Both the position numbers and the translations under genes were made by a program. A stretch of 64,000 nt of DNA from an uncultured delta proteobacterium (lineage in GTDB: Bacteria > Desulfobacterota > Binatia > UBA9968): positions 1 to 64,000 of the forward strand of contig CAWJZV010000034.1 in assembly GCA_963847445.1 (NCBI GenBank), written 5' to 3'. Positions 1 through 34,283 of the stretch are shown in pieces. Every line of letters starts with the position of its first letter. The first letter of the stretch is position 1. The notes under the pieces were generated by a model. It had not been told where the DNA came from. It saw only the letters and a list, made by a program, of their open reading frames with translations, and ran no database searches.

Positions 1-971
1 AATTTCTCCTGCTTCAATCTCTCGATGATGGACCCGTCGGCGAACTCTTTGGGGTCGCGCTTTGGCGCGTCGGGGTATTCTTTGCCGAAGTTTTCTAGGA
101 TGACTTTGAGTCCCTCCAACGTCGGCGCCATGTAGTCGGGCATCAGCGAGGAGACGAAGTCGAATTCTGTCGCGATCAGTTTGGGATCGCTGATCTTCAT
201 GTACTTGGCGATGGTGCGTTCGCTGTCGGCGCGGTTGCGTTTCAACGTGACGACCGCCTCGGTGGCGCATTTCATGTAGCGGTAGGCGAGCTCGCGATTT
301 TTCAGCAACCAGCCTTCTTCGACCACCACTGAAGTCCACGGGAAAGGGATCGCCATCTGCTGGGCAGTAGACAGGACGCGGAAACCCAGTGCGCGCGCGT
401 TGTCGGTGGCGGCGGCGCCGAGGAAGGTGAATTGGATCGTGCCGGTTTTCAGGGCTGCGACGCGGCTGGAGTCGCCGCCCATCTGCAGCATCCTCAAATC
501 GCGGTCGACGTTCAAGCCATTTTTCGAAACAGATAGCGGAAACCCTGGTCGGTGGAGGAGCCGAAGCGCGAGATGCCGGCGAGCTTGCCGGCCATGTCGG
601 GGATGGATTTGATGTCGGGATGAACGACCAGATTCGACGCCAGCCAGGGCAGCGGATTGCCCAGGATCGTCAGCTTGATGCCACGCAGCCGCGCTTCGAT
701 GGACACCGGGCCGCCGCCGGCGATCTGCACGCTGCCGCCGAGCAGCGCGGCGATGTTCATGGTGCCGCTGTTGATGTAAAGGAGCTCGCCTTCGAGACCA
801 TGCTTGGCGAAGATGCCGCGGTCCTGGGCGACCCAGAAAGGCCTGGGTGGCGTTAACCGCCGAGTAGGATATCCGCAGCTTGTCGGCGGCGAAATTCTCA
901 GTGGCGAGCGCAAAGAAGCCGACCAACACCAGGGCGACAAGCTTCGGAAACAGGAGTTTGGGGTTTTTCAT
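1..971 (-). CDS. ABC transporter substrate-binding protein, NMT1/TauA/SsuA family (frameshifted; 3' end runs off the window)
   Basis: ATG at 971 gives a signal peptide, MKNPKLLFPKLVALVLVGFFALATENFAADKLRISYSAVN. After a shift it continues WVAQDRGIFAKHGLEGELLYI...GISRFGSSTD, typical of this family. Apparent indels near 835 and 520. Confidence 0.85.
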   Translation of the reverse strand, partial: MKNPKLLFPKLVALVLVGFFALATENFAADKLRISYSAVNATQAFLGRPGPRHLRQAWSRRRAPLHQQRHHEHRRAARRQRADRRRRPGVHRSAAAWHQADDPGQSAALAGVESGRSSRHQIHPRHGRQARRHLALRLLHRPGFPLSVSKNGLNVDRDLRMLQMGGDSSRVAALKTGTIQFTFLGAAATDNARALGFRVLSTAQQMAIPFPWTSVVVEEGWLLKNRELAYRYMKCATEAVVTLKRNRADSERTIAKYMKISDPKLIATEFDFVSSLMPDYMAPTLEGLKVILENFGKEYPDAPKRDPKEFADGSIIERLKQEK

Positions 972-1095
972 GGGACTGTGGATACAGCGATTCAGCCACC
1001 GCGGTCAAGGGCATGTACAGCTGTGACAGAACGGAATTTCTTGGACAACTCGAAAGACGGTCTGTTAGGACAGGCCGTTCCAGTAGGGAGGTCCA

Positions 1096-2124
1096 ATGCA
1101 GCTAAACGGCGAAGCATCGATGCGAAGCATTTGTTGCTTCATGATCTTATGTGCGGCGGCTTTTTTCTCTGCTTTTTCCGGTCGTGCCCAGAGCATCGAC
1201 GAGACTTACAAACAAGCACTGAAGGAAGGCGGCGTGTTGAACGTCTACGGCACTTTGACGCCGGATACCGCGGAGAAAGTTTTTGCCGATCTTCGAAAAA
1301 CGCTTTTCCGGCATCAAGACAGTCAACACCGGAGCGAGCTCCGATAAAATCGTCGCCCGGGCGATCTCCGAAGCGCGCGGCGGCCGGACTATTGGCGATG
1401 TGTTCCACATGAACCTCGAAAACATCATGCAGGTTCATGAACAGGGTCTGGTGCTCGAAAAGCTGCCGCCGGAGGCTGACGTTTTTGCCAGCCACCTCAA
1501 AGGAACTTACTGGGTCGCGACGCGTTTCAATACCTTGGTAGCGGCGTGGAATACGCAGTTGGTCAGTAAAGCGGACGAGCCGAAGAGCTTTGAAGAGCTT
1601 GCCGAACCAAAATGGAAAGGCAAGCTCTTGGCCGAGCCGCGCGACGCCGAGTTCCTCATCGCTTTTGCCGAACAAAGATATAAGAGTGCCGACAAAGCCA
1701 TCGCTTTGTTCAAAAGAATCGCCGCCAACAATGTGGAGTTTCACGCGGCCATCCGCAGTTGGTTGAACTGCTGATGGCCGGGCAGGGCTCGGTCTGCCTG
1801 ACCTGCTACACGCATCATTTGTTGCCGCGAATGCACAAAGCGGCGCCGCTCAATTACCTGCGCTCCCTCGGCGTCGGTTTGATCAGTGCAACGGCGGTGT
1901 TCAAGAACGCGCCTCACCCGAACACGGCCTGGTTGTTTCACCGCTGGGCCGCCTCGGACGAAGGGCAAAAGGCGTTCGGCATCGAGGGCCGCGTGCCTGC
2001 GAATCCGAAAGTCGAACCGGCCGAGCCCATTGGCCTCACGACGGTCTATGGCTTGGGCGAGAAAGAGTACCGGGAGTTCGCCAGATACGAAAAGATTTGG
2101 AAGCAGATTTTCAGCTTGAGGTAA
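1096..2124 (+). CDS. Extracellular solute-binding protein, Fe(III)/AfuA-like family (frameshifted)
   Basis: Three overlapping ORF pieces (1096-1347, 1283-1774, 1759-2124) join into one protein: signal peptide, ALKEGGVLNVYG, AWNTQLV..EPKSFEELAEPKWKGK, KNAPHPNTAWLF..W..SDEGQ. Confidence 0.85.
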
Positions 2125-2464
2125 CGTTAATTACGTTTTCACAGCGGCTTGGCGACGATAGAGCCGCATTGCCGTTATGATATAGGTCGGTCGGTTAGTT
2201 TTCTGCGGTTCTTACGCCGCGCGATTCAGTCGCGCGGCTATCTCCATTGGTCGCGGATCTCCCAATCGCGGTTTCGATAAAGCCAAACGCGCTGTTAAAT
2301 CCGATTTGCTTGCTGGTGTTTGTCCCCAGCTCGCGTGGATGAACGAGCGCGAGTTGAATCAAGCCCCTCTCTCGCCGGCAAATCGCCACAAAGGCACCTA
2401 TCGTCAAGAGTTTGTATTAGTACGCGCTGGTGATTTATAACGCTCGTGTAGGAGGAGAAGTTTC

Positions 2465-2878
2465 ATGGCAACCCGTTGGTTATTCAAGACCGAACCGAGT
2501 GTTTATTCATACCAGCAGCTGGTCAAAGACAAATCGACCATGTGGGACGGGGTGGCGAATAATCTCGCGCTGATGCATTTGAAGGATATCAAAAAGGGCG
2601 ATCAGATTTTTATTTATCATACCGGCGATGAGCGCCAGGCGGTGGGCATCGCGCGGGCTTTGGGCGGCGCCTATTCCGATCCCGGCAAGGACAATCCGCG
2701 CATGCTGGTGGTCGACATCGAGCCGGTGAAAGCCTTGGCCAAGCCGGTGACCCTGGCGGAAGTCAAAGCGGACAAGAAGCTGGCCAAATTCGACCTCGTG
2801 CGCAATTCGCGGCTGTCGATCATGAAGCTGACCGACGAGCAGTGGGACGCGATGATGGAAATGTCAAAAAGAAAGTAA
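2465..2878 (+). CDS. EVE domain-containing protein (PUA-like)
   Basis: WLFKTEP..YS...L......WDGV.N..A...L, YHTG and RLSIMKLT..QW signatures; GGAGG RBS upstream. Confidence 0.92.
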   Translation: MATRWLFKTEPSVYSYQQLVKDKSTMWDGVANNLALMHLKDIKKGDQIFIYHTGDERQAVGIARALGGAYSDPGKDNPRMLVVDIEPVKALAKPVTLAEVKADKKLAKFDLVRNSRLSIMKLTDEQWDAMMEMSKRK

Positions 2879-2885
2879 AAATTAA

Positions 2886-3045
2886 AGGGGCTTCAGGCTT
2901 ACCCGTGAACCGGGGCTCGGAAATTTGCACCGCGGAGGCGGCGGAGGACGCGGAGTAAAGAGTTTTTGATTAAGATATTCTCCGAACTCAGCGGACTCTG
3001 TGTCTCTGTGGTGAATATTTCTGCACAGGAAACCTGGAAGGCCCA
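2886..3045. repeat. Palindromic MITE/REP-like element (CACCGCGGAG...CTCTGTGGTG family)
   Basis: Imperfect inverted arms at 2928-3013; related copies near 11188-11355, 12870-12945 and 35520-35595. Confidence 0.7.
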
Positions 3046-3078
3046 ATTTCAAAGGCAAAGTAGAAAAGGGATACCAAG

Positions 3079-4101
3079 ATGGCTGACGAACATAAACACG
3101 AGCATAAGGGTGAGCATTCGCACGATCATGGTGACGCCCATCATGACGACAAACATGGCCACAGCCATTCTCATGAAGCGCATGGTCACGAGCATGAGCA
3201 TGAAGCGCACGGGCAAGATCACGCGCACGGTTCGGAGCATGGTCATAAACATGATCATGGGCATGCCGACGATCACGGGCACGATCACGAACACGGCCAT
3301 TCCCACGATCACAAATCGCGCTTCAAAGATCCCGCCCATGCCGCCGAGTTCGACCAGCGCGGCCTGTCGGACATGCGCAGCCAGCTGACGACCAAGTTGA
3401 TCGAGGCGCTGACGCTCAAGGGCGGCGAAGCGATCCTGGACTTGGCCACCGGCACCGGGCGTGTCGCCCGGCCGTTGTCGAAGCAGATGCAATCCGGGCG
3501 CATTGTCGGCGTCGACGAGGCGCTGGCGATGCTCGACGTCGGCCATCATCATAAAGATCCGATCGCGCGCTATGAATTGAGCGCCGGCGAGGCCGACAAG
3601 CTGCCGTTCAAGTCCGGCATCTTCGACCGCGCCTTCGTATCGTTCAGCTTGCATCATTTCGGCAATCCCCCCGGCGTCGTTGGCGAAGTCCAGCGCGTGC
3701 TCAAACCAAGCGGCCGCTTTGTCGTCCTCGATCCGGTCATGGAAGAATCCAAAGACGCCATCGACGTGGCGCTAGAGGCAAAGGTCAATCAAGTGTTTCG
3801 CCGCACCCACGGCGAGGGCTTTCGCTTTCACACGGTCAGCAGCATCGAGCGCTTGCTGACCAAGGCCGGCTACCGCGTGCCGCGCAAGAGCGTGATTTCC
3901 TATCCGTTCAATCAAGAAGGCATGGACGGCATCCCCACCGGCCGCCACTGGCTCGAAGCCGCGCTGGAGTTGGAAAAGGAAGCGCCGGAGTTGGCCGAGC
4001 GCATGAAGAAAAACTATTTTACCTGGCACTCCCACGGCGACCACGCCCATGTGAAGGGAAGTTTTTCCTACGCGCTGATCACCGGCGTGAAGCCGGCTTA
4101 G
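3079..4101 (+). CDS. Class I SAM-dependent methyltransferase (UbiE/Methyltransf_11-like) with a His-rich N-terminal extension
   Basis: Motif I ILDLATGTG, DKLPF..GIFD, LHHF and RVLKPSGRF; 31 His in the first 78 residues. Confidence 0.9.
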   Translation: MADEHKHEHKGEHSHDHGDAHHDDKHGHSHSHEAHGHEHEHEAHGQDHAHGSEHGHKHDHGHADDHGHDHEHGHSHDHKSRFKDPAHAAEFDQRGLSDMRSQLTTKLIEALTLKGGEAILDLATGTGRVARPLSKQMQSGRIVGVDEALAMLDVGHHHKDPIARYELSAGEADKLPFKSGIFDRAFVSFSLHHFGNPPGVVGEVQRVLKPSGRFVVLDPVMEESKDAIDVALEAKVNQVFRRTHGEGFRFHTVSSIERLLTKAGYRVPRKSVISYPFNQEGMDGIPTGRHWLEAALELEKEAPELAERMKKNYFTWHSHGDHAHVKGSFSYALITGVKPA

Positions 4102-4114
4102 AGGACAGTACCCG

Positions 4115-4170
4115 GAAGTCAGCAATCAGAAGTCAGAAGTCAGAAAGCCGACCTCTGACATCTGACCTCC
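4115..4170. repeat. Heptamer tandem repeat (AAGTCAG)n with inverted counterpart (CTGACMT)
   Basis: gaagtcag caatcag aagtcag aagtcag ... ctctgacatctgacctc. Confidence 0.7.
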
Positions 4171-4197
4171 AGTGCATGAAAACCAAGGAGCAGTAAC

Positions 4198-4458
4198 GTG
4201 AAGAAAGCTGACTTTCGGACATTCTACAAAGACGCCCACGCCGTCGAGTGCCTGACCGAGCGCGAGAAGATGCTCATGGGGCTGGCCGTGGCGATGATGC
4301 GGCTGTGCGATCCGTGAGTGGATCGGCGCCTTGCGGACGCAAGGAAAGCGGGGATGACGGAGGAGGAACTGGACGCGGCAGTTGACGTAATCTCGGCGGT
4401 GGACGCGGGAGTGTTGCAGTCGCTCAATCAGCGGGTGAAGGCAAGAGCGAGGGGCTAA
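4198..4458 (+). CDS. Carboxymuconolactone decarboxylase/AhpD-family selenoprotein (CxxU), 86 aa
   Basis: AAGGAG RBS at 4185-4190 and GTG start. Translation: MKKADFRTFYKDAHAVECLTEREKMLMGLAVAMMRLCDP(TGA)VDRRLADARKAGMTEEELDAAVDVISAVDAGVLQSLNQRVKARARG. The CMD pattern (L..REK.L..LAVA....CxxC.....A.KAG.T.EE) continues through the in-frame TGA at 4315-4317. Confidence 0.88.
4329..4344 (+). promoter_or_regulatory. Bacterial SECIS-like hairpin
   Basis: CCTTGC-GGAC-GCAAGG: a perfect 6-bp stem starting 11 nt after the TGA, with an apical loop beginning with G. Confidence 0.75.
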
Positions 4459-4611
4459 TCACGAGGGCCGCGGGAACGCTGGGACAACGGATAGCGCTAC
4501 CAGCCCACCAGCGGTCAGTGAATGTACGCGCCTGAAGGGCGCATAAGAAGAGTTTCGAACGCGGATCGGCAGAGAAGCTGGCCTTCAATTACGAAATACG
4601 GTGATTTCGGA

Positions 4612-5303
4612 GTGAGAAGAAGCGCGACTTGTTATATGTGTGATTCGGTTGAAACTTCGCGGGAACATGCTCCCCCGTTATGTTTCTTTCCAGAAGCTAA
4701 AGAGTTCGGTCGAGATTTACGGCGCAATCTCATCACCGTGCCTTCCTGTGACCAGCACAACTCACAGAAATCGAAGGACGACGAATCCTACGGTCCATCG
4801 TTTTGATGGCAGCAGGAAACAACGAAGCAGGGCAACACCAATTCCATTGGAAGATGCTCCCCGCCACGTCTCGAAAGCCCCATACTTACCGAACATTCTT
4901 CAAAGATAAGGGAACAGTCGCACACGGAGAAGGCCACGCGTCTCAGATTGATCGAGATCGCTTTGATGGCTGCATCGACCATTTAGTGCGAGCGTTGTTC
5001 TTCCACAGCTACAAACGTAAATGGCAGTTGCCCATAGTCACCTTTTCGCCTAACTTTTTCAGCGGGACTAGCTCGAATGAAATAGTTCCGGACCAGCAAT
5101 CAATGAAGGCTATCGAAGCATCCAGACAGTTCCTTAGTAATGAGCCATATCTTAGCGAGAATCCTGACGTGTTCCAGTATCAAATCCGATACGATGAAGA
5201 TGGTGCTGATGAAGGGTTTGCTTGCGCCGCCATCTTTTACGCTAGTTTTGAAATCTATTCGTACTCGTCTAAGGATTTAACCACAAATAAAATGCCAATC
5301 TGA
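4612..5303 (+). CDS. HNH-like / Zn-binding nuclease-family protein (frameshift near 4785)
   Basis: CYMC....TSREHAPP..FF...LITVPSCDQHNSQKSKDDE, then continues in the 4803-5303 ORF; lower GC than the flanks. Confidence 0.6.
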
Positions 5304-5590
5304 AAGAAGGGGCGAAGGATATTTTTCAGCTTGCGTACTGCCGCACATCTTAACGATTCTTGGCTTCATAGGCAGGCTCATTTTTGCAAGCGGATTCCTT
5401 TCACCACGTCCACTTGGGAGTTGAAGAACGTTGCCAAACACTTCCTTTGCCCCAACTGCTACTACCTGTGGAATCTTTCCTGTTTTTTCATCATAGTTGG
5501 GTCTCATATCCAATTGTGGAATGTGGCCAGCAGTGCGTGGAAGGCGTGAGGACGCATGGACTGAGTAAGACGTTTACTTTTTCTTGCCAT
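5277..5590 (-). other. Possible small hypothetical gene or fragment (low GC)
   Basis: ATG at 5590 (MARKSKRLTQ...) could join the 5277-5513 ORF through one indel; no recognisable domain. Confidence 0.2.
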
Positions 5591-5712
5591 GTTTCTTTTA
5601 GTTACATCAACTGCCTATGCCTTTAATAACGTGTATCAGTGCACCGCTGTGACTGAGACAACGGTGGGTTACGCTCCGGCGCTCCAACGAAGTCGAAGCT
5701 AACGCCGGTAAA

Positions 5713-6039
5713 GTGAAAAACCCGTACACCGTGCAACTTTCTGGCGTAATCCGCGATGCAACGGTCCTTCACGCGCAAGAACCAGTCCAGCTATTAAAGG
5801 TTTCCGAGACTCAGCGCGTGATTTGGTTTACGGAGAAAGCCCTTGCCGGAACAGTTATCGTTTGGACTCTGTTCGAGAAGGATGGCGGCCGCCCGGTAAC
5901 GCTTATCAGCACGAAAAGTTACGATTTGTCTGGTGCTGTCACGGTTTACTGCCTTTTATACTGCATGGTGAATTGCCGGGCTGTTGTACCCAAACGCCAG
6001 GATGCCGGTATGACCACCAAGAACTCGACGCTGTTGTAA
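5713..6039 (+). CDS. Hypothetical protein
   Basis: 108-aa ORF in the low-GC insert; no recognisable motif. Confidence 0.25.
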   Translation: MKNPYTVQLSGVIRDATVLHAQEPVQLLKVSETQRVIWFTEKALAGTVIVWTLFEKDGGRPVTLISTKSYDLSGAVTVYCLLYCMVNCRAVVPKRQDAGMTTKNSTLL

Positions 6040-6051
6040 TGCGATCATAGC

Positions 6052-6088
6052 CGGTGGATGTGGGAGTTCTGCAGTCGCTCAATCAGCG
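6052..6088 (+). repeat. Diverged direct repeat of the selenoprotein gene 3' end (4397-4433)
   Basis: 33/37 identical; the last 19 nt (TGCAGTCGCTCAATCAGCG) are identical. Confidence 0.85.
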
Positions 6089-6347
6089 TGCTCGAATAGG
6101 TGTTCAGGCTTTGATTATTTGATATTTGCGCTTCCTCCTCGTGTCGCAGTTGTGTGCAGCTAGTTTCCAACTGCTTGCTGGTATGCATTACAGTGCGAGG
6201 GGTCAGCACAGAGCGATGGTAGACGCTCAACGCTGATAGTCGGATTTCATAGCGACTTGTAACAACGGCGTTACTCTGGCCGGTGGCCTTTGTGACATTG
6301 ATATAGGCGAACGTCGGTCTATATTATTGATAGTTAGTGTTTGGAAT

Positions 6348-6998
6348 ATGGACGATTGCTGTATCGATAAGAGTTGCGCTATCGACGGGCTGCGCGGGCG
6401 GCAAACGGCGACACTTCGCCTCGTTTTGCTCGTGAACGCTGCGATGTTTGTCGTGGAACTTGTGTCGGGCTTGCTCGCTGGGTCCGTGGCTCTGCTCGCC
6501 GACTCCCTCGACATGCTCGGCGACGCGCTTGTTTATGGCTTTAGTCTTTACGTCGTCGCGCGCGGTCCCGTATGGAAAGCGCGCGCCTCTCTTGCGAAGG
6601 CAGCGGTGATGGGGCTGTTTGGACTTTTCGTCTTTGGGCAGGTCGCGTACAAGCTGCTTTTCCCTCAGCTCCCGGTGGTAGAGACAATGGGTGCGATAGG
6701 CGCTCTTGCGCTGGCCGCGAACGGCGTCTGCTTCGCCTTGCTCTGGCGCCACCGTGCCGAGGACATCAACATGCGGTCGGTCTGGCTCTGCTCTCGAAAT
6801 GATCTCATCGCAAACGCTGCGGTGTTGTTAGCGGCATTGGCCGTGCGGATCACGCTTTCGCCTTGGCCGGACATCGCGGTCGGCGCGTTTATCTGCGCCA
6901 TTTTCTTGCGCTCGGCGTTCCTTGTCGCGCGCGAAGCTCATGCCGAGCTGAAGTTGAATCACCTCCAACCATCCGCTGCAGCAGGACCTATACGTTAG
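6348..6998 (+). CDS. Cation diffusion facilitator (Co/Zn/Cd efflux) family transporter
   Basis: NAAMFVVE...G..AGSVALLADSLDMLGDA, DINMRSVWLCSRND.IAN and WPD; Cys-rich N-terminus MDDCCIDKSC. Confidence 0.9.
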   Translation: MDDCCIDKSCAIDGLRGRQTATLRLVLLVNAAMFVVELVSGLLAGSVALLADSLDMLGDALVYGFSLYVVARGPVWKARASLAKAAVMGLFGLFVFGQVAYKLLFPQLPVVETMGAIGALALAANGVCFALLWRHRAEDINMRSVWLCSRNDLIANAAVLLAALAVRITLSPWPDIAVGAFICAIFLRSAFLVAREAHAELKLNHLQPSAAAGPIR

Positions 6999-7142
6999 CA
7001 TGTCGATTTCTCGGCGTGTCGCATTCCTGATTCGACGCATATCAACCGAGCAGGAGCAGCCAAAATCAAGTGTACGCTCCGATCGAGTTGGATGCGAAAA
7101 GTTTGACGATGCTTCTGACTAGACTATTAATATTATAGGTGG

Positions 7143-26003: not shown

Positions 26004-28410
26004 GTGGCAGTGAACCCGCGCAAGATCATTGGCGTGCCGACGCCAAGATCCGAAGGCCGCGAGAAAGTTTCCGGTGCGGCGATCTATGCCACGGACGTAG
26101 TCCTCCCCAACATGCTCTGGGCGAAAGCGCTGCGCAGTCCAATCGCTTACGGGCGAATCAAAAAAATCGATGTCAGCAAAGCGCTGGCGCTGCCGGGTGT
26201 TCACGGCGTGGTGACCGGCGCCGATGTCAAAGGCCAACTCATCGGGCGCAAAATCTACGACATGCCGGTTCTGCCCGATGAGGTCGTGCGCTTCATCGGC
26301 GAGAAAGTCGCGGTGGTCGCGGCGGAGACTGAGGAGATCGCCGAGGCGGCGACCGAATTGATCGATGTTGCATTATGAAGAGCTAGACGCGCTGCTCGAT
26401 CCGCTGGAAGCGGTGCAGCCGGGCGCGACGGTGCTGCATCCCAACGTGCAAAGCTACCGCGGCTTGCTGCACGAAATCAAAACGCCGAGCAATGTCTTCG
26501 TCGATCTGACTTGGACCAAGGGCGATGTCGAAGCGGGGTTCCGCGACGCTGACTTGATCATCGAAAACACTTTCACCACCCAACCGATGCATCAGGCTTA
26601 CATCGAGCCCCATTCTTGCGTCGTGCAGGCGCATAGCGCGGGCGGCGCCGATGTCTGGGCTTGTTCCAAAGTGCCATTTGCCCTGCGCGAGCAGGTCGCG
26701 ACGGCGTTGCGCCGGCCGGTGGGCGATTTTCTCATGCACCCCAGTTACATCGGCGGCTGCTTCGGCGGCAAGGGCGACTTCATGGACGTGCCGGTGTGCT
26801 ATTTGCTATCGCTCAAGAGCGGCCGGCCGGTGAAGATGGTGATGGATTATGCGGAAGAATTTATCGCCGGCAACCCGCGCCACGCCGCGGTGATCAAAGT
26901 GAAGACCGGCGTGAAGAAAGACGGCCGGCTGATCGCGCACCGCATGGACTTATGTCTACGACAGCGGCGCCTACGGCGCGTTCAAACCGCAAGGATATTT
27001 AGTCGGACCCAAGGAAGCGGCCGGGCCGTACAAGATCCCCAACGTCCATATCAACGAGAAAATCGTTTACACCAATAAAATCCCCTGCGGCCATATGCGC
27101 GCGCCGGGCGAGCCGCAGGGCTTTTTCGCCAACGAATCGCAAATGGACCTGGTGGCGCGGCGGCTGGGCATGGACCCGATCGCATTTCGACGGAAAAATC
27201 TCATGCACGACGGCGATGTTTCGCCCATCGGCCATGCGCTGCCGCATATCAAGAGCGAGGAGACTTTGGCGCAGGCGCTGGCGGCGTCGGGTTACGGTAA
27301 GCCAAAACGAAAATATGTCGGCCGCGGCTTGGCGCTGGCGCAATGGCTGCCGCTGGGCGGTGAAGGGCATGCGTTCGTGACCGTGGATGGGGGCGGCGTC
27401 ATCACCGTGTCGACCGCCATGGTCGATCAGGGCGCGGGCACCTACACGGCGATGCGGCAGATCGCCGCCAATGAGCTGCAAGTGCCGGTAGAGCAAGTTC
27501 GTTGTCAAATTCTCGACACCAGCGGCGCCGCCGCGGATACCGGTGTCGGCGCCAGCAGGGCGACGCGGATATTCGGCAATGCGACGCAGGCCGCGGCGCT
27601 TCAAGTCAAAGCAGAAATTGTTGCAGGGCGCGAGCGAAATTCTCGGGGTGCCGACGGATGACGCTTTCCTTCACCGGCGGCGGATCGATACGCAGCCGCA
27701 GCGGCAAGCCGGTTTCTTACGCCGCCATCGTCGAACGGCTCGGCGGTTCGATTCGCTGCGAAGGCGCGTACAAAAATTTCGCTAACGGTCCCGAAGCCGC
27801 TCTGGTCGTGCAAGTTGCCGAAGTCGAGGTCGACCGTGAGACCGGCCAGGTGGCAGTGAAACACTTTACCACCGCGCATAGCACCGGCACGATCATCAAT
27901 CCGTTGATGCACCAAGGGCAGATCGACGGCGGCGTCGTAACCGCGATCGGTTATGCGCTGATGGAGCAGCTGGTCATTGAGCAAGGCAAAGTAATCACGA
28001 CCAACTTCGGCGAGAATAAGATTCCGTCGATCCGCGACATCCCGCCGCTGAAAACGGTCATCCAAGAATTTCCCGTCGGCAACGGCCCCTATGGCGGCAT
28101 GAGCATCGGCGAGCCGCCGGTGCTGGTGGCGGCGGCGGCGATCGCCAATGCGGTTCACGATGCGGTCGGTGTGCGGATTTACGATCTGCCGATCACGGCG
28201 GAGAAGGTGCTGACGGCGCTGAAAGAATCTTCGGATGATGGAGTAATGGCAAGGATCATTGGAGATGATTGGGTTCCGAGTGTTAACCGCAATGAACGCA
28301 AAGTACGCAACGCATTCCGGGACTCGCAGGGCAACTCCGCTTGTCGCCCTTTCGATTCGGCTCCATTGCGCCGGATGATTTTCCCTGCTAATTCAGACTA
28401 CCATCTATGA
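26004..28410 (+). CDS. Xanthine dehydrogenase/CoxL-family molybdopterin-binding subunit (several indels; homology ends near 28230)
   Basis: KVSG.A.Y..D, HQAYIEPH, IGGCFGGK, MRAPG, DQGAG, IINP...GQIDGG and GPYGG..IGE...AAAIANAVHDAVGVR..DLPIT.EKV. Confidence 0.9.
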
Positions 28411-33562: not shown

Positions 33563-33640
33563 CTCTCCGGCTAATCTGGCCAAACGCAAGCAAACTAACC
33601 AGACGAGTTGTGACAAAAGCATGGCCACACCGGAGGCAAT

Positions 33641-34283
33641 ATGAGCAAAATCTATGATGCCCTTAACGAGGTGGGAGCGAACCCTTTCGAGCCGAGTAAC
33701 GCCCCTCTACCCGATGGGATAATTCGCAGTACCGCTACCGGCCTGCGCAAGGAGTTAGTGGAGTTTGAAAAACTACTTGGCGAGCGCGTCGGTAGATTAA
33801 GGTTAGCCGCCGACAGAGGCTGACACGGCAGCGGCCACTGACAGCCAGCAGGCCGTCCGAACCATCGAGAAACTCAACGGTGAAATCAGCGCGCTTGACA
33901 CCAAGTTAAAAGAGACAACGGATCTCCTTGAGAGAAAGGAGTTGGCCAGTCAAGCACTCGAACGGGAATTGACCGCGACAGTCAGTGAACTGAAGACCGA
34001 GGTAAAAACCAAGGACGAAACTTTGGCAAGCCGGGTTTCCGAAGTAAACGCGCTTACCGCCGAAGTGAATCGCTTGCGCGACGGCATACGGGGAATGGTG
34101 TCGGTCTTTAATCAGCAAGCCCAAGCGTTAGGCGGACACCTCGCGGCGAATAGTCGCATGGCTGCGTTCGCGCCGCCGGCAACGAACTCAGCAAAGTCCG
34201 AGCTTGCGCATCCCTCCGCCCTGGCCGCAGTATCGGAAGCAAACTCAAACGAGGGCGTCGACACATCCATACTCGAACGATAG
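33641..34283 (+). CDS. Hypothetical coiled-coil protein (indel near 33815)
   Basis: GGAGG RBS and MSKIYDAL start; the shifted frame EADTAAATDSQQAVRTIEKLNGEISALDTKLKE joins the 33942-34283 ORF. Confidence 0.6.

Follow-up and report, generated by a model that had tools for sequence, protein, structure and literature searches.

This work concerns a stretch of 64,000 nucleotides (nt) from an uncultured member of Candidatus Binatia (assembly GCA_963847445.1, contig CAWJZV010000034.1), hereafter the window, and a short gene located at its positions 4198-4458, in which a single TGA codon interrupts an otherwise open frame. According to our data, this is a genuine CxxU selenoprotein gene of the CMD/AhpD-like class (hereafter AhpD-Sec), whose UGA at codon 40, followed by a bacterial selenocysteine insertion sequence (bSECIS), would be decoded as selenocysteine (Sec) by the standard mechanism; we assign to this interpretation a probability of roughly 0.85. 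The CxxU AhpD/CMD-like class has long been known, and the Binatia family is an added member of it. With it, Candidatus Binatia, a group of uncultured bacteria from soil and sediment, gains a selenoprotein family that is well supported and spread throughout the lineage.

Structure of the Gene and Reading Frame

The features of the gene, given with their window coordinates, are the following:

4185..4190, + strand: Shine-Dalgarno-like AAGGAG, read from the sequence, with a 7-nt spacer before the GTG start
4198..4458, + strand: very probable selenoprotein coding sequence of 86 residues with a CMD/AhpD fold, based on translation, Pfam CMD, an AlphaFold model and homologs
4306..4308, + strand: codon of Cys37, the first residue of CxxU, matching the initial Cys of the CxxC motif of 3bey, 1vke and 7y4r in the alignment
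4315..4317, + strand: UGA very probably read as selenocysteine (U40), conserved as TGA in homologs and aligned to the second Cys of CxxC
4329..4344, + strand: SECIS hairpin, with stem 4329-4334 paired with 4339-4344 and the GGAC loop at 4335-4338, based on bSECIS constraints and conservation

The frame opens with GTG (4198-4200), comprises 86 sense codons and closes with TAA (4456-4458); internally it contains a single stop, the TGA of codon 40 (4315-4317), flanked as in C37-D38-P39-TGA-V41. Under genetic code table 11, the list of open reading frames (ORFs) splits the gene into two pieces, one of 39 aa (4198..4317) and one of 46 aa (4318..4458), both below the usual listing threshold of 60 aa. 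A preliminary description of this DNA had proposed a ribosome binding site, a GTG start and an 86-codon frame with one TGA at codon 40, overlooked by the ORF track, and each of these elements was recovered in our analysis.

Conservation of the TGA Codon and of the Downstream Coding Signal

The presence of the gene was checked in a set of 31 genomes of the same order, the one harboring the window included. A homolog was retrieved from 25 of them; the near-full-length matches number 27, are 67-99% identical and each have a single TGA in frame. In the multialignment this triplet corresponds to codon 40 in 21 genes out of 21, inside an invariant C-D-P-U-V. As regards the 56 loci from named metagenome-assembled genomes (MAGs), which are mostly labelled Candidatus Binatia, the rest bearing older delta-proteobacterial labels, 56 of the 57 copies spanning the site possess the TGA; the 57th is a Cys-containing relative of 41% identity, whose alignment is offset. 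Moreover, 78 of 80 metagenome loci share the TGA, the other two having the Cys codon TGC. The set of 31 genomes and that of the named MAGs overlap, as they share species representatives, and the conservation counts include an unpublished genome (G005), with no claim resting on G005 alone.

The pooled alignment embeds 118 distinct 57-nt sequences. In these, the first two bases of the Cys37 codon (T and G) are invariant, while the third (C) is at least 90% conserved. The distribution of the variable sites over the three codon positions is 18/7/39 in the 45 codons downstream of the TGA and 8/8/38 in the 38 codons upstream of it; hence, the second half of the gene varies like a coding sequence, in agreement with the earlier suggestion that the family pattern continues past the TGA.

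The annotation of this family in public databases is affected by a systematic error, in that its members are mostly split into halves and, in a few cases, given a W at the Sec site. Out of the 120 public homologs listed, 97 cover only about 44-53% of the protein and 9 are full-length; a C is found at position 40 in six of these nine, although the database may store U as C. The public gene calls of the family are mostly such halves, named "hypothetical protein". A dedicated family model would correct many records, since no NCBIfam model captures the family.

In some relatives (loci L090 and L092, and positions 67,653-77,941 of contig C14 of genome G018), two to four copies of the TGA-containing gene are arranged in tandem within a few kb.

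The SECIS Hairpin

Eleven nt past the TGA begins a hairpin whose stem consists of six perfect base pairs (bp) between CCTTGC (4329-4334) and GCAAGG (4339-4344). According to the legend of Figure 2 in a review of bacterial selenoproteins (PMC13188914), the bSECIS model comprises a stem of 4-16 bp, a loop of 3-9 nt with G in the first two loop positions, a distance between UGA and loop of 16-37 nt and a minimum free energy of -7.5 kcal/mol or lower. The hairpin in the window has a 6-bp stem, a 4-nt loop (GGAC), a UGA-to-loop distance of 17 nt and a minimum free energy of -10.4 kcal/mol (calculated on a 36-nt piece), and thus falls within all four published constraints. Both the perfect hairpin and the fit of its spacing and G-initiated loop to the SECIS model had been pointed out in the preliminary description, and the analysis of nucleotide variation adds to them a constraint acting on the hairpin itself.

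This constraint emerges from the 52 degenerate codons encoding an invariant residue: the six codons of the hairpin (codons 44-49) are all fixed at their synonymous sites (6/6), versus none of the other 46 (0/46). Furthermore, in the 118 distinct sequences, 99.6% of the stem cells are paired, versus 33.5-49.4% when the partners are slid. The stem pair 27-36 is U-A in 115 sequences and C-G in three, via two synonymous changes. When this compensatory change was compared with 500 shuffles, the observed number of cells was reached by none of them (0/500) and the pair count by 48. Within this genome, the hairpin core is found at two sites only, the two copies of the AhpD-Sec gene. The nearly invariant SECIS of 20 nt would be a clean reagent for studies of SelB recognition in this lineage.

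Two further structures were considered and discarded. The first one is an extension of the lower stem (G21-C44 and C22-G43 in alignment A3), in which column 21 varies freely and C44 is invariant. The second one is a SECIS shared by selD and AhpD-Sec, based on a CCUUGC..GCAAG core; the hairpin of selD is not the same from one to another of the 12 relatives examined.

Protein Family and Fold

The read-through protein matches the Pfam CMD domain (PF02627) with 39.8 bits versus a cut-off of 23, the match extending over residues 6-69, that is, across the TGA. The AlphaFold model (mean predicted local distance difference test, pLDDT, 85.2) has helices at residues 3-14, 21-34, 38-50 and 55-85, with U40 at the start of the third. 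The 29 Foldseek matches listed (through rank 47) are all of the CMD/AhpD type, the best one being 3bey, with a template modelling (TM) score of 0.67. In a sequence search of solved structures, C37 and U40 align with the Cys pair of the CxxC motif, which is CDAC in 3bey, CDDC in 1vke/1p8c and CDGC in 7y4r; the solved CMD structures therefore possess a Cys exactly where the TGA falls, as the preliminary description had assumed from the motif.

No specific NCBIfam model reaches its own cut-off with the 86-residue protein. The best matches are to the C-terminal AhpD domains of MduS (NF045649; 39.6 bits versus a cut-off of 380, E-value 3e-10, model positions 237-311 out of 338) and of the ArsM/AhpD selenoprotein (NF041537; 36.9 bits versus 510, E-value 2e-9, model positions 267-343 out of 345), while the scores are 37.2 bits versus 120 for TIGR04169, 26.3 versus 110 for the GSU3128 family (NF041047) and 15.8 versus 191.95 for canonical AhpD (TIGR00777). 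The residue four positions after Sec is an Arg (Arg44) in all 21 aligned genes, whereas the structural homologs 3bey, 1vke and 7y4r have a His at that position.

In the mechanism that we propose, SelB loaded with Sec-tRNA(Sec) would bind the G-loop hairpin 11 nt past the UGA, and selenocysteine would be delivered to UGA-40, giving rise to the 86-residue, four-helix protein instead of a 39-residue fragment. Sec would replace the second Cys of CxxC, yielding C37-x-x-U40, and would lie at the N-terminal end of helix 3. From this position in a redox motif, we infer that the protein may act as a small thiol/selenol oxidoreductase, which would cycle between the selenol/thiol and the selenenylsulfide forms and might reduce a peroxide, a peroxiredoxin-type partner or another oxidized substrate. 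Selenols are largely deprotonated at neutral pH; this, in turn, would imply that the His relay of the AhpD proteins is dispensable in AhpD-Sec.

Selenocysteine Decoding in the Genome and in Its Relatives

The genome harbors selA, selB and selD, clustered on contig C14 (positions 191,462-195,913, locus L021); its selD contains an in-frame TGA of its own (C14:194,917-194,919). Among the other 30 genomes of the order, selB is full-length and without stops in 24 and exceeds the cut-off in 26, and a tRNA-Sec of 73-78 bits was retrieved from 22, all 15 high-quality genomes included. As for the 24 relatives that possess the TGA-containing AhpD gene, selB is over the cut-off in 23 and tRNA-Sec is present in 21, the exceptions being genomes that are 81-93% complete.

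Some observations weigh against our interpretation. In the first place, the sel cluster of this genome can be read only with six +1 frame corrections (four of them in selB, the other two in selA and selD, one apiece), each frame break being a single-base insertion in comparison with relatives that are 88-91% identical. These breaks are all +1 and fall within 4.4 kb, corresponding to about 1.4 per kb; the sampled background is 0.24-0.35 per kb, with ten +1 and ten -1 changes, so that the sel cluster is four to six times denser. Secondly, Rfam, ARAGORN and fragment searches of the contigs did not retrieve any intact tRNA-Sec from the assembly. The 5' flank and the first 23 nt of the molecule are located at C4:239,397-239,486 (the fragment itself at 239,464-239,486), the last 25 nt or so at C12:77,602-77,578, followed by the 3' flank, and the middle portion of about 43 nt is absent. 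Thirdly, the energy of the hairpin is not exceptional: a 66-nt fold has a z-score of -1.12, and 25 out of 200 shuffles are at least as stable; what sets the hairpin apart from chance is therefore its conservation and not its thermodynamic stability. The covariation, too, concerns one pair in three sequences, with three of the six stem pairs never varying, and it is supportive but thin, since the three C-G sequences may derive from one event. Finally, the biochemical role suggested above for the protein is deduced from its family membership.

The first two points could be accounted for by assuming that Sec decoding has just been lost in this population, through the arrival of a mobile element in tRNA-Sec and frameshifts in the sel genes; AhpD-Sec would then be an orphaned gene in which the UGA now terminates translation. 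In agreement with this idea, the two parts of tRNA-Sec lie on different contigs (C4 and C12), 50 nt separate the 3' fragment from a gene for a tyrosine recombinase (C12:77,653-78,855, minus strand), the DNA inward of both junctions is missing from the close relatives G003 and G004, and the six insertions in the sel cluster have the same direction and the high density reported above. The split of tRNA-Sec looks like the result either of an island integrated at selC or of an assembly break there. However, the assembly is error-prone: frame changes are found in 26 of the 79 ORFs that are intact in G003 and G004, two of them in the window (27,002-28,239 and 33,614-34,280), and such widespread indel errors imply that the apparent pseudogenes of this assembly need read support. 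Moreover, the substitutions that separate selB from its relatives are dominated by the third codon position (30/11/111), and the six inserted bases coincide with positions at which the relatives differ from one another (GTC or GTT, for instance, appears here as GTCT), a pattern that would be compatible with a consensus artefact of mixed strains. The extra base is also absent at five of the six listed positions in contigs from four independent studies, the sixth being covered by gapped contigs; these contigs come from related strains only, no sequencing run containing more than 0.29 of the sampled words. Furthermore, at least ten genes, that of FdhA included, still possess a TGA, most of them with a downstream hairpin, and the genome is 91.8% complete (with 6.9% contamination), so that an intact tRNA-Sec may have escaped assembly. 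On the basis of these data, a recent loss of Sec decoding appears unlikely.

Two apparent tRNA-Sec candidates of this genome were rejected. The one called "tRNA-SeC" by ARAGORN (C2:139122-139203) is mismatched in the acceptor stem, falls within a frame of 1,030 aa and has no Rfam match; the top Rfam matches (45 and 44.6 bits, versus a cut-off of 47) are ordinary tRNAs with a long arm.

The preliminary description had concluded that the organism decodes Sec. This statement finds support in the presence of selA, selB and selD and in the intact machinery of most relatives, and loses some of its force in this genome, where the genes have six frame breaks and tRNA-Sec is fragmented. Since the sel genes with six insertions and the interrupted tRNA-Sec belong to an error-prone assembly, present-day decoding is here inferred, and we consider active Sec decoding in this population very likely.

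As to the second alternative, namely that the TGA is an ordinary stop and that we are dealing with a truncated pseudogene or with two unrelated ORFs, the hairpin being due to chance or to an unrelated regulatory function, table 11 does yield two small ORFs and the hairpin energy is ordinary in comparison with shuffles. Nevertheless, this scenario is very improbable: the TGA occupies one and the same codon in well over 100 different sequences, even where protein identity falls to 67%, the part past the TGA is coding-like in the same frame, a single CMD domain spans the stop, and the TGA aligns with a catalytic Cys, for which TGC variants exist.

Lastly, a code change or a suppressor tRNA might cause UGA to be read as a standard amino acid (Trp, Gly or Cys). 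In favor of this, the full-length database entries P0003, P0005, P0013 and P0016 have a W at position 40, which is, however, best explained by gene calling under an alternative code (presumably one with TGA = Trp). The idea is hardly credible: TGA terminates 633 of the 1,444 long frames of the genome and 7 of the 21 AhpD-Sec genes and, being the commonest ordinary stop, has not been reassigned. Furthermore, a tRNA with a UCA anticodon was not credibly identified by ARAGORN (its sole call lies in an ORF and has poor stems), and the SECIS-type constraint on the hairpin would lack an explanation.

Gene Neighborhood

The features surrounding AhpD-Sec in the window are the following:

2465..2878, + strand: EVE-domain gene (Pfam EVE, 127 bits)
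3079..4101, + strand: gene for a class I S-adenosylmethionine (SAM) methyltransferase of 340 aa with a TAG stop (Pfam Methyltransf_11/25/31 and UbiE; NCBIfam matches)
4129..4170, + strand: stable stem-loop within the spacer (96 nt) that separates the methyltransferase gene from AhpD-Sec (fold of 102 nt)
6327..6998, + strand: cation-diffusion-facilitator (CDF, Cation_efflux) gene (Pfam PF01545, 62.8 bits)

The most widely conserved neighbor is the EVE gene, which lies upstream and on the same strand in 41 of the 56 loci from named MAGs. The methyltransferase gene is found directly upstream of AhpD-Sec in 26 of the 56 loci, those of this genus and family, where it is embedded between the EVE gene and AhpD-Sec; in the loci without it, about 55 nt separate the end of the EVE gene from the beginning of AhpD-Sec.

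The N-terminal region of the methyltransferase (about 80 residues) is hypervariable and consists of His, Asp, Glu, Lys and Gly. The protein has no Cys, its gene has no TGA, and the His clusters GHHHKDP, SLHHFGN and WHSHGDHAH are conserved. The His-rich region, the His clusters and the lack of Cys suggest, at the level of the sequence, that this methyltransferase might bind a metal. A complex prediction between its residues 81-340 and a Cys-form homolog of AhpD-Sec (P0002) gave a score of 0.00, a result that is neutral on binding.

The TAG stop of the methyltransferase gene is followed by the 96-nt spacer, with a further in-frame TGA. The stem-loop of this region is built from GAAGTCAGA-type repeats (102-nt fold: -27.4 kcal/mol, z-score -2.92, with 2 of 200 shuffles as good). 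In the spacer there is no T-tract on the plus strand and no promoter-like site, and a terminator-like arrangement exists on the minus strand only. A hairpin without a T-tract and the lack of a promoter-like site are compatible with a co-transcription of the methyltransferase gene and AhpD-Sec.

The CDF gene is found within the 3-kb flanks on either side of AhpD-Sec in 5 of the 56 loci, and it is also present in a second block of this genome, described in the last section. The ORFs at 4522-4803, 4803-5300 and 5713-6036 have no Pfam match, and no gene for AhpC or another peroxiredoxin is found among the six neighboring ORFs scanned (EVE, methyltransferase, the three Pfam-less ORFs and CDF).

The region 4,460-6,300, to which these Pfam-less ORFs belong, has a lower G+C content (0.43-0.52) and no counterpart in the 56 related loci; the portion of an AhpD gene encoding the C-terminus survives in degenerate form at 6,018-6,095 (61% identity over 26 aa). 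This region was probably inserted into what had been a tandem AhpD copy.

Comparison with Known Systems

Selenoproteins of the AhpD/CMD-like type with a CxxU motif have been catalogued since 2005-2008 (PMC2398784). The 2008 survey of the Global Ocean Sampling metagenomes describes two such families, AhpD-like 1 (299 genes) and AhpD-like 2 (70 genes), both with CxxU (PMC2398784). The table of a 2026 review includes a CMD-like PF02627 CxxU family, the GSU3128 family, MduS and ArsM/AhpD (PMC13188914), and the AhpD-like family serves as the browsing example in the description of BSepDB (PMC13326102). The families catalogued in the survey, together with the 97 of 120 listed homologs that are about half-length, are in keeping with the earlier remark that AhpD-like selenoproteins represent a known but usually misannotated class. 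A full-text search of the literature, with subscription journals and supplementary tables outside its range, did not retrieve any paper in which selenocysteine or selenoproteins are treated together with Binatia or Binatota.

Like the CMD-like or "AhpD-like 2" selenoproteins of those sources, the Binatia protein belongs to PF02627 and has a CxxU motif with Sec as its second residue and a SECIS directly downstream. It differs from them in being a minimal single domain of 86 residues, from Binatia of soil and sediment, with Arg instead of His four positions past Sec. The GSU3128 family is likewise composed of small (84-position) CxxU selenoproteins related to AhpD; a score of 26.3 bits versus a cut-off of 110 places the Binatia protein in a different subfamily.

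In MduS and ArsM/AhpD, a SAM methyltransferase is fused to an AhpD domain and two or three Sec residues are present, whereas in Binatia the methyltransferase and the AhpD-like protein are encoded by separate, adjacent genes, and the neighboring methyltransferase is UbiE-like, not ArsM-like, without Cys or Sec. Hence, the Binatia protein is neither MduS nor an ArsM/AhpD fusion selenoprotein.

The Cys-type CMD proteins O27018 (3bey), TM1620 (1vke/1p8c) and RclX (7y4r) share the fold and the size class of the Binatia protein; 3bey, with 96 aa, is 32% identical to it. In 3bey, 1vke and 7y4r, the site of Sec is occupied by Cys, and the His four residues past the second Cys is retained, versus Arg44 in Binatia. 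AhpD of Mycobacterium tuberculosis (1knc, 177 aa) belongs to the same fold superfamily and has a redox center of the CxxC type, with a relay formed by Glu118, Cys130, His132, Cys133 and His137 (PMC3141380). Compared to it, the Binatia protein has Pro39 instead of His as the middle residue and Arg44 in place of the relay His; with both His residues replaced, it is not a canonical AhpD. Among the genomes sampled, the family is distinguished by its minimal size, Arg44, a near-invariant SECIS, the linkage with the EVE and methyltransferase genes and its occurrence in Binatia-type genomes only.

A more speculative scenario, which we regard as possible but doubtful, is that the CxxU protein represents a detachable redox or chalcogen-ligand subunit of the His-rich, Cys-free methyltransferase. 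The two proteins would be the split counterpart of MduS and ArsM/AhpD and would handle a metal or a metalloid, perhaps together with the CDF exporter, with Sec acting as a soft ligand or as a reductant; the relay His would have given way to Arg because the selenol can be activated without a base.

Other Selenoprotein Candidates in the Genome

At least ten TGA-containing candidates are present in the genome, most of them with a downstream hairpin: AhpD-Sec, its copy on contig C14, six CxxU CMD genes, FdhA and SelD. Three of the six CMD genes have a CxxUxxxH motif and are clustered at C16:39,980-44,493 (minus strand), and the other three have a CPYU motif and are located at C42:99,815, C29:23,393 and C8:151,741; in all six, a hairpin follows the TGA. 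The presence of six further CMD genes with TGA at the CxxC position and hairpins points to a large AhpD-like selenoproteome, and this richness in CxxU CMD-type selenoprotein genes is a trait of the genome. The FdhA-like formate dehydrogenase alpha subunit (C34:150,014-153,297, minus strand) has its TGA in the canonical "ARIUHSSSV" context, and its gene is split into several frames.

The second copy of AhpD-Sec belongs to a block at the end of contig C14 (C14:286,754-292,335, minus strand, locus L209), whose nucleotide identity with positions 1-7,050 of the window is 92-95%. The amino acid identities are 100% for the EVE protein, 91% for both the methyltransferase and AhpD-Sec, and 95% for the CDF protein, and the metallo-beta-lactamase-fold gene is frame-broken. 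This block could represent either a paralogous or segmental duplication or a related strain binned together with the genome.

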